Source: a virus | Lineage: Duplodnaviria > Heunggongvirae > Uroviricota > Caudoviricetes | Reading direction: 5' to 3' (one strand) | DNA: 22,540 nucleotides | Virus record (IMG/VR): IMGVR_UViG_2526164690_000046 | In this document: positions 17,390 through 17,967 of the stretch, in pieces | How positions within the stretch are numbered: the stretch's first letter is position 1 | Layout of the letters: each line of letters begins with the position of its first letter | Position numbers and translations under genes: made by a program | Notes under the pieces: generated by a model | What the model was told of the DNA's origin: nothing | Database searches by the model: none | What the model saw: the letters and a program-made list of their open reading frames with translations, nothing else

Positions 17390-17782
17390 CCGGAAAAAGG
17401 AAAGTTTGAGAAACGCGATCTGGCACAGGCGGTTATTAATGCTGCCTACCTGGTGGCCTGTGCAGATGGTGAATGTGAGGCTTCCTAGAAAGCGAAGATC
17501 GAACAGGTACTGCGTAATCAGCCTGCGCTGTCCGCGTTTACGTCAGAAATTAATGCGATTAGCGCAACCATTATCGGTCAGCTGGATACGAACTTTAAAA
17601 TTGGTCGTCGTGCGGCGTTACGTGAGATCGAGGATGTGAAACACGATACGCGTGAAGCGGAAGATGTGCTGGATGTGGCGGTGGCCATTGCGGAGGCAGA
17701 CGGCGAAATTGAGCCGGAAGAGCGCAAGGTGCTGGAAGAGATTGCCGGTGTTCTGGGTCTTCGTCTGGAGAATCACCAGTGA
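17390..17782 (+). pseudogene. TerB-like domain gene remnant (in-frame TAG, no start codon in frame)
   Basis: My translation reads PEKGKFEKRDLAQAVINAAYLVACADGECEAS then TAG (17486-17488) then KAKIEQVLRNQPALSAFTSEINAISATIIGQLDTNFKIGRRAALREIEDVKHDTREAEDVLDVAVAIAEADGEIEPEERKVLEEIAGVLGLRLENHQ; two ADGE motifs about 78 aa apart as in TerB-fold proteins; TAA immediately upstream at 17387-17389. Confidence 0.45.
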
Positions 17783-17967
17783 CGGTAAAACTGCGCCTGG
17801 CTGTGGCTGCACTCCTGCTGTTTCTGGTGGTGATGGTGGATTTCACCAGCAGAATCATGTCGGTGCTGGCGGATGGGGTGCTGGTCTGCGGCATTGTGGT
17901 ATTGCTGTGGCCGGTGATAAAAGAAACAGCCTGCATAATGCTTGATTTTTTGTTTACTGTTTATTAA
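17779..17967 (+). CDS. Small two-TM membrane protein (62 aa)
   Basis: GTG start overlapping the TerB-like stop, TGGAGA SD 8 nt upstream; two hydrophobic segments (LAVAALLLFLVVMVDF, VLVCGIVVLLWPVI). Confidence 0.45.
   Translation: MTVKLRLAVAALLLFLVVMVDFTSRIMSVLADGVLVCGIVVLLWPVIKETACIMLDFLFTVY

Follow-up and report, generated by a model that had tools for sequence, protein, structure and literature searches.

The stretch of DNA analyzed here, referred to as the window, comprises 22,540 nucleotides (nt) from a tailed virus of the Caudoviricetes (IMG/VR record IMGVR_UViG_2526164690_000046). At positions 17390-17967 it carries a broken gene of the TerB family that runs into a gene for a small membrane protein. 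This locus is very probably a decayed tciA-tciB cassette with two real and independent lesions in tciA, occupying the first variable slot in the late operon of a lambdoid prophage that sits at the Rac site of a genome resembling enterohemorrhagic Escherichia coli (EHEC) O111. The cassette is named after the tciA-tciB-tciC genes of phage P1, in which the same two protein families occur in the same order with abutting or overlapping frames. The features that define the locus are as follows; lengths are given in amino acids (aa).

17405-17782, + strand: tciA pseudogene of the TerB family, about codons 19-143 of a 143-aa protein, identified by PF05099, intact homologues and PHROG 632
17486-17488, + strand: amber codon TAG replacing GAG (Glu45 of the intact 143-aa TciA), identified by alignment to intact copies
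17183-17403, + strand: intergenic segment that follows the late antiterminator gene Q, not derived from tciA, reaching the ribosome-binding site of the deleted gene orf65 and including the A5 run at 17394-17398, identified by alignment to phage Stx2_EH1910
17399-17405, + strand: deletion junction GGAAAG/TTT within A-rich microhomology (AAAAAG in both parents), identified by alignments to the left and right parents
17779-17967, + strand: tciB (DUF3927), a 62-aa open reading frame (ORF) in the window with two transmembrane segments, identified by PF13064, hydropathy and homology to P1 TciB

Identification of the tciA pseudogene

Translation of the + strand from 17300 to 17782 gives ...VSR, a stop, PEKGKFEKRDLAQAVINAAYLVACADGECEAS, the amber stop, KAKIEQVLRNQ... 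and finally AEADGEIEPEERKVLEEIAGVLGLRLENHQ before the terminal stop; a fuller listing ends in ...VAIAEADGEIEPEERKVLEEIAGVLGLRLENHQ and the same stop. The TerB frame (17390-17782) is preceded by a TAA at 17387-17389, interrupted in frame by the TAG at 17486-17488 and closed by a TGA at 17780-17782, and it encodes two ADGE motifs, at 17462-17473 and 17699-17710. On the broken frame, the Pfam TerB profile PF05099 scores 44.8 bits (cut-off 24.4, E=1.7e-11) and is matched from position 2 to position 109 of its 118, which places the predicted family membership far above chance. An earlier note on this DNA had described a TerB-like frame with two ADGE motifs, an in-frame TAG and no usable start, and had proposed a PF05099 search; the hidden Markov model profile scores above its gathering score, and the translation bears out each of these points.

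A scan of the in-frame codons detected no ATG in the tciA frame. The sole canonical in-frame start 5' of the TAG is the GTG at 17453, the valine of 'YLVAC', which lacks a Shine-Dalgarno (SD) sequence and leaves 11 codons, and the first in-frame start 3' of the TAG, the GTG at 17636, opens only 48 aa. A full-length tciA product is impossible from the available start codons. The uninterrupted coding sequence with a start that marks a functional member of the TerB family is missing owing to the TAG and to the loss of the ribosome-binding site and of codons 1 to ~17-18. By homology, the frame belongs, as a pseudogene, to the TerB family and to the tciA/tciB cassettes of P1 type: its TciA is homologous to P1 TciA over the full length, and a DUF3927 gene lies immediately 3' with a stop-start overlap.

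Protein and translated-DNA searches recovered hundreds of near-identical intact proteins of 142-144 aa with up to 98% identity, which are named 'TciA/TerB-like protein' or 'tellurite resistance TerB family protein'. The tciA product maps to phrog_632 and that of tciB to phrog_1470 'TciB-like', both in the category 'moron, auxiliary metabolic gene and host takeover'. Membership of TciA and TciB in a known defence system was considered and rejected for lack of meaningful PADLOC support: in PADLOC, intact TciA gave only a marginal partial match (PDC-S48, E=0.0028, with no stretch passing alone) and TciB gave none.

Two independent lesions in tciA

Alignment to intact homologues, also proposed in the earlier note, located both lesions and revealed that the TAG replaces a GAG. 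The TAG and the deletion junction are present together in all four aligned junction-bearing copies, namely the window, E. coli O26:H11 11368, an O157:H7 strain and 95NR1. The change at codon 45 is a G-to-T substitution, a real lesion independent of the deletion. In one E. coli contig (locus L008, ~1594-2022, protein P0001), codon 45 is TGG (Trp) and the 5' end of the gene is intact. A single-step reversion of the amber allele may have given rise to this copy, in which case the nonsense mutation would be older than the 5' deletion.

The second lesion is found at the 5' end. Homology to intact tciA breaks off at AAG TTT GAG (~17402-17410), and the DNA further 5' is unrelated to the native tciA 5' region. 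Instead, 17183-17403 is 99.1% identical over 221 nt to the segment that follows the same Q gene in the Stx2a phage Stx2_EH1910, where this post-Q segment stops 6 nt before the ATG of a 65-aa ORF (orf65). Both parental arrangements occur in a single genome, the prophage PPyecE_EH1910, in the order Q, post-Q segment, orf65, DNA methylase, 'plasmid stabilization protein', 'transcriptional regulator', intact tciA, tciB, yjhS and holin, and the two AAAAAG motifs that flank the material missing from the window are spaced 2,579 bp from each other. Because the left flank of the window junction matches the post-Q region up to the SD of orf65 and the right flank matches tciA from codon ~18, we infer that a 2,579-bp (~2.6-kb) deletion fused the ribosome-binding region of orf65 (CCGGAAAAAGGAAAG) to tciA at codon ~18. 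The parts of tciA lost in this way are its SD, its ATG and the N-terminal sequence MFGIFKKK(A/T)RRAA.EIK.

Two other accounts of the missing 5' end were rejected. The earlier note had suggested a second lesion at the A5 run (17394-17398), but this run is not tciA sequence; it belongs to the left-parent DNA, is 99% like the post-Q segment of Stx2_EH1910 and forms part of the ribosome-binding region of orf65, so that it is no frameshift lesion, and the real second lesion is the 2.6-kb deletion with its junction at ~17399-17405. A different ancestral start, as the termini of P0004 (MESSKRK...) and of P0001 and P0008 (MVFLVKK...) might imply, was dismissed since these proteins share the same canonical 5' DNA with 1-nt differences in an A run.

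The history that best accommodates these observations very probably ran as follows. A deletion between short A-rich repeats took away orf65, the DNA methylase gene and a toxin-antitoxin-like pair, and with them the ribosome-binding site of tciA and its codons 1 to ~17-18. A separate G-to-T lesion changed the GAG of Glu45 to an amber stop. The damaged allele spread by recombination among the lambdoid prophages of EHEC serogroups, with decay continuing in some of them.

Spread and decay of the allele

A 156-nt query spanning the junction and the TAG was found at a coverage of at least 80% in 478 of 5,426 complete E. coli genomes (~9%), a number that counts the junction only, the TAG itself having been seen in the four aligned copies. 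In the O26, O111 and O157 genomes examined, the PGAP annotation treats the locus as a pseudogene with an internal stop, under the name 'tellurite resistance TerB family protein', and places an intact 55-aa DUF3927 protein after it. The RefSeq pseudogenes ECO26_RS31805 (O26:H11 11368) and KP540_RS15610 (O111:H11 88-19539) have the same junction, the same TAG and the same downstream DUF3927 gene, and the window differs from these records only by a substitution at 17383 and by private 1-nt indels. The 95NR1 copy lies behind a different Q gene and has acquired an extra 156-nt internal deletion in tciA as well as a stop at W44 of tciB.

The compared pseudogene copies differ at a handful of sites, which coincide with polymorphisms of the intact alleles. 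This distribution fits import by recombination and provides no power for an analysis of dN/dS; the overall pattern is consistent with an allele that decays neutrally while recombination spreads it among lambdoid prophages residing together. Even when inactivated twice, an accessory gene can thus be carried widely by recombination of lambdoid prophages, behind at least two different Q modules. The locus itself is already known, as the identical allele is flagged as a pseudogene in RefSeq, and it represents routine decay of prophage cargo. The present analysis adds only the precise position of the deletion junction, the identity of the parental arrangement and the finding that the 62-aa ORF is a variant specific to this assembly.

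Relatives of the tciA-tciB cassette

Intact lambdoid tciA/tciB cassettes are present in phages JLK-2012 (JQ347801) and Evi (LR597642) and in prophage PPyecE_EH1910 (LC567835), with 96.8-98.4% protein identity. As in the window, these copies lie between Q and nanS-p/holin and display the same GTGA overlap; they retain the ATG, the N-terminal MFGIF(K/G)KK... and GAG at codon 45, and their TciB is 54-55 aa long. In JLK-2012, annotated tciA and tciB are found between Q plus three tRNA genes on one side and yjhS (nanS-p), holin and lysin on the other; in PPyecE_EH1910 the TerB protein bears the annotation 'TciA/TerB-like'.

The cassette of P1 is more distant. P1 TciA is 49-50% identical (tblastn to P1 and P7, 50.4% over 96% of the query) and P1 TciB is 48% identical to TciB of the window type. 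The P1 cassette resides in the tRNA/ban region, whereas that of the window belongs to a lambdoid late operon under Q/PR', with a dead tciA and a small RNA (sRNA) gene after tciB. In a CRISPR interference (CRISPRi) study, P1 tciA and tciB were scored as non-essential (PMC10695390). A survey of the literature on tciA/tciB and DUF3927 returned annotation-level mentions and the P1 CRISPRi essentiality table only, and no functional paper was found.

Adjacent TerB and DUF3927 genes also occur in jumbo Machinavirus phages, beside tRNA genes, such that the TciA/TciB pair is conserved from P1 to jumbo phages. tRNA genes adjoin intact tciA-tciB in JLK-2012 (L002, 3048-3281), P1 (L006, 361-514) and Machinavirus (L007, 833-1297), and a tRNA-Asn plus tRNA-Thr pair upstream of the cassette is common to JLK-2012 and P1. 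This arrangement hints that the tRNAs and tciAB travel as one module.

Outside phages, the TerB of the ter operon (terZABCDEF) contains the same Pfam domain; the nearest solved structure, that of Klebsiella TerB (2JXU), matches with E=2e-07 over residues 14-137, and Klebsiella TerB and TciA have paired ADGE-type acidic motifs in common. TciA is nevertheless only a distant TerB relative without a ter operon context, and the TciA proteins of phages are not known to act in tellurite resistance. Intact TciA would be a soluble TerB-domain protein of ~143 aa that probably acts at the membrane together with the 55-aa TciB and its two transmembrane segments, and in intact cassettes the stop-start overlap would couple synthesis of TciB to that of TciA. 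Because of the homology to ter-operon TerB and to P1 tciABC, the intact pair is presumed to have a membrane-associated function in stress, colicin response or phage exclusion that is dispensable for phage growth.

The late-operon slot

The order of elements predicted for the region is Q, PR', tR', the deletion, the tciA remnant, tciB, the STnc100/PasD sRNA gene, AgvB, nanS-p and the lysis genes. The elements upstream of the cassette are listed below.

16362-17182, + strand: late antiterminator gene Q (quuQ type, 273 aa when intact), split in the window; both halves match the Pfam family Antiterm (PF03589)
17188-17227, + strand: PR'-like late promoter, with -35 TTGATT at 17188-17193, extended -10 TGgTAAATT at 17207-17215 and AACGAT at 17222-17227, identified from the sequence and alignment to lambda and SfV
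17263-17287, + strand: tR'-like intrinsic terminator with a 7-bp GC-rich stem and a T7 tract, identified by a terminator scan and RNA folding (z = -3.6)

In the nearest genomes, Q is an intact 822-bp 'antitermination protein' gene. Directly 3' of Q, the window contains TTGATT, a 16-nt spacer and TGgTAAATT, followed by TTGCCCTAACGATGGG, which align with the post-Q regions of lambda (GGTAAATTTGACTCAACGATGGG) and SfV; the pattern GGTAAATTTG..C.AACGATGGG is kept across this alignment. By what is established for lambda, the aligned lambda sequence corresponds to PR' and its sigma-70 pause element. A generic sigma-70 scan of the + strand from 17100 to 18400 returned no site and did not list the PR'-like element at 17188-17227; the DNA that natively precedes tciA has been lost from the window. 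The hairpin at 17263-17287 is the best terminator candidate and lines up with the SfV stretch CCCGCCGCTGAGCGGGTTTTTTT, inside the 'putative rho-independent terminator' annotated in SfV.

The position of the cassette, between Q/PR'/tR' and the lysis genes, is a variable slot typical of lambdoid accessory genes (morons). Stx2_EH1910 possesses an identical Q and the 221-nt post-Q segment, followed by orf65, the methylase gene, tRNAs and stx2AB, while PPyecE_EH1910 has the methylase gene, the toxin-antitoxin-like pair and tciAB in the same place. The proposal that the locus lies right after PR' and tR', where stx sits in other lambdoid phages, is borne out in that the same Q and post-Q segment precede stx2AB in Stx2_EH1910; homology supports the predicted PR', the predicted tR' and the moron position alike. 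The genomic slot is that of the Shiga toxin (Stx) phages, whereas the cargo in the window differs, is non-functional and includes no toxin.

tciB and the quality of the assembly

The GTG start of tciB (17779-17781) overlaps the TGA of tciA (17780-17782) in the sequence GTGA, and a GGAG at 17767-17770 sits 8 nt 5' of the GTG; tciB retains its own SD and start. The 62-aa ORF matches PF13064 at residues 3-50 with 59.6 bits (cut-off 25, E=2.9e-16), and hydropathy analysis detected two hydrophobic segments at about residues 5-21 and 26-47. The 55-aa TciB of the O26 copy matches PHROG 1470 'TciB-like'.

The length of the ORF is a different matter. The A4 run at 17919-17922 of the window is A5 in every other copy compared, the intact PPyecE copy included, and a private frameshift begins after residue 48. 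As a result, the tail of TciB, which elsewhere reads ...VIKRNSLHNA and ends after 55 aa at a TGA equivalent to 17943-17945 of the window, becomes ...VIKETACIMLDFLFTVY with a stop after 62 aa. The 62-aa tciB is most likely a homopolymer miscount of this assembly, the true product being the 55-aa TciB. The description of a 62-aa ORF with two transmembrane segments, an SD and a GTG overlapping the upstream stop therefore stands as regards the ORF, the SD, the overlap and the membrane segments; its length of 62 aa is private to the window.

This indel is one of several. Over its whole length, the window matches the prophage at the Rac site (ttcA) of E. coli O111:H11 at 99.9%, and the best match of any complete genome to 17190-18350 is 99.4%. 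There are 12 differences from the nearest genome, 11 of which are 1-nt indels, mostly in homopolymers, the remaining one being the substitution at 17383. The private indels are located at 2452, 7114, 16726, 17918, 17945, 18124, 18137, 18164, 18180, 22145 and 22528. At ~16726, an A6 run in the window versus A7 in other genomes splits Q into two overlapping ORFs, and four of the private indels fall in the downstream sRNA genes, where they depart from the Rfam consensus. Comparison with the other genomes indicates that the private indels are probably homopolymer-length sequencing errors in the source assembly, and neither the 62-aa ORF nor the split Q of the window should be taken at face value.

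Alternative explanations

Several observations weigh against the account of a doubly lesioned tciA beside a 55-aa tciB. Simple joining of the compared parents through AAAAAG would produce a junction 2 nt longer than that of the window (A5 G2 A3 G); therefore the true parents or the exact breakpoint differ slightly. The private A4 run could be a genuine strain-specific mutation. The GTG of tciB lies in a predicted mRNA stem, the fold being non-significant (z = -1.3, no better than shuffled sequences). Finally, any expression or activity of tciB in this allele is putative: if made, TciB would come from late transcripts antiterminated by Q and would lack its TerB partner.

The alternative that survives best concerns this last point. 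It holds that tciB persists as a functional stand-alone gene, effecting exclusion, colicin tolerance or some change at the membrane, its own SD serving for translation of late or read-through transcripts; this would account for the intact tciB of most copies. The GGAG, the 8-nt spacing and the GTG are all kept, the PGAP annotation gives an intact 55-aa protein in O26, O111 and O157 copies with a dead tciA, and even the window leaves the DUF3927 core (residues 3-50) untouched. However, tciB has a premature stop (43 aa) in 95NR1, only 43 aa are called in locus L008, and the C-terminus is altered in the window. Moreover, in P1, lambdoid and jumbo phages tciB is always found beside tciA with frames that overlap or nearly abut, which suggests joint action and translational coupling, and the copies are so similar that their intactness may merely mean that the allele is recent. 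On balance, an independently functioning tciB appears doubtful. A stronger version, in which TciB has been kept because it acts alone to block superinfection or colicins, or because it forms the 5' part of the STnc100/PasD sRNA transcript, and in which the allele has been selected, seems improbable. If it were true, the widespread combination of dead tciA and intact tciB in EHEC prophages would be selected and not neutral.

The remaining alternatives restore some function to tciA itself. A 48-aa C-terminal mini-TerB, running from the GTG at 17636 to 17782 and including the second ADGE motif, might be functional and bring ribosomes to the tciB start. The ORF exists, and phrog_3920 is made up of just these 48 aa, called time and again in phage genomes, but that family most likely results from gene callers choosing the longest ORF in a pseudogene. 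The GAGG in front of the GTG is only 2 nt away, a poor spacing, half a TerB domain is unlikely to fold, and the 95NR1 deletion removes the start altogether, which makes a working fragment very unlikely.

Alternatively, tciA could be alive if the TAG were read through, by an amber suppressor tRNA or by programmed recoding, and if translation began at a non-canonical start behind the AAGGA ribosome-binding site to yield a slightly shortened TerB. An SD-like AAAGGAAA (17396-17403) does lie just 5' of the remaining tciA frame, intact cassettes adjoin phage tRNA genes, and the allele is widespread. Nonetheless, no ATG, GTG, TTG, CTG or ATT occurs in frame within 15 nt of this SD, the first being the CTG at 17420, and no tRNA gene is present in 17000-18800. 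The extra 156-nt deletion in 95NR1 is what neutral decay predicts, and TGG at codon 45 with an intact 5' end in one contig fits a genuine nonsense allele that reverted or varied and not recoding. Continued synthesis of TciA is consequently extremely unlikely.

Despite the many private 1-nt indels of the window, it is next to inconceivable that tciA is really intact and that its TAG and lack of a start stem from faulty sequencing or assembly. The TAG arose by substitution and the 5' end was lost through a 2.6-kb deletion, neither of them a homopolymer indel, and the junction recurs in hundreds of independent complete genomes with the TAG in the aligned copies, including the complete genome of O26 11368. 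The outcome that would have overturned the earlier note, an intact ORF on resequencing, is accordingly excluded for the TAG and the missing start by the junction in 478 complete genomes and the TAG in every aligned junction copy. The preferred reading, a tciA pseudogene with two real lesions next to a tciB of doubtful independence, is retained.

Downstream elements and prophage setting

The region 3' of tciB contains two sRNA genes and the next gene of the late operon.

17952-18142, + strand: STnc100/PasD-family prophage sRNA, immediately 3' of tciB (Rfam RF02076, 135.1 bits, gathering score 47)
18144-18205, - strand: AgvB (anti-GcvB) sRNA, convergent with STnc100 (Rfam RF02702, 75.9 bits, gathering score 56)
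18353-18538, + strand: 5' fragment of nanS-p (DUF1737 domain), a sialate esterase gene and the next gene of the late operon, cut by an island (Pfam PF08410)

The frameshift-extended 62-aa ORF enters the STnc100 sRNA gene by 16 nt, and a private extra T at 18124 falls in the terminator stem of this sRNA. AgvB contains two window-private indels (18164 and 18180) that are off the family consensus. TerB has been reported among the conserved genes within 10 kb of PasA/PasC sRNAs, with STnc100 matches frequent in the flanks (bioRxiv 10.64898/2026.05.13.724894), and the sRNA context of the window agrees with that report.

Homology to O26-type prophages ends at 18538. An island of ~8.8 kb splits nanS-p cleanly at 18538/18539 and extends to the window end; the full element is present in L018 (~978-9752), and in the O111:H11 reference the esterase gene picks up exactly past the island. 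The island genes include a P4-type integrase (18746-20005), a helix-turn-helix regulator, Icd-like and Ash-like genes, a RepA-family helicase, a small terminase subunit and a major capsid protein, and a 26-nt repeat, TTTTAGTTATACGTTTAGTTATACGG, is found near both ends. From this gene content, the island looks like a phage-inducible chromosomal island or a P4-type phage satellite, which would have settled within the late operon of what may be its helper prophage.

At the other end of the window, positions 1-9000 display a prophage at the Rac site beside ttcA with intR, xisR, ralR, recT, recE, racC and kilR. Unlike the Rac prophage of K-12, that of the nearest complete genome has a complete complement of genes for lysis, head and tail further downstream.

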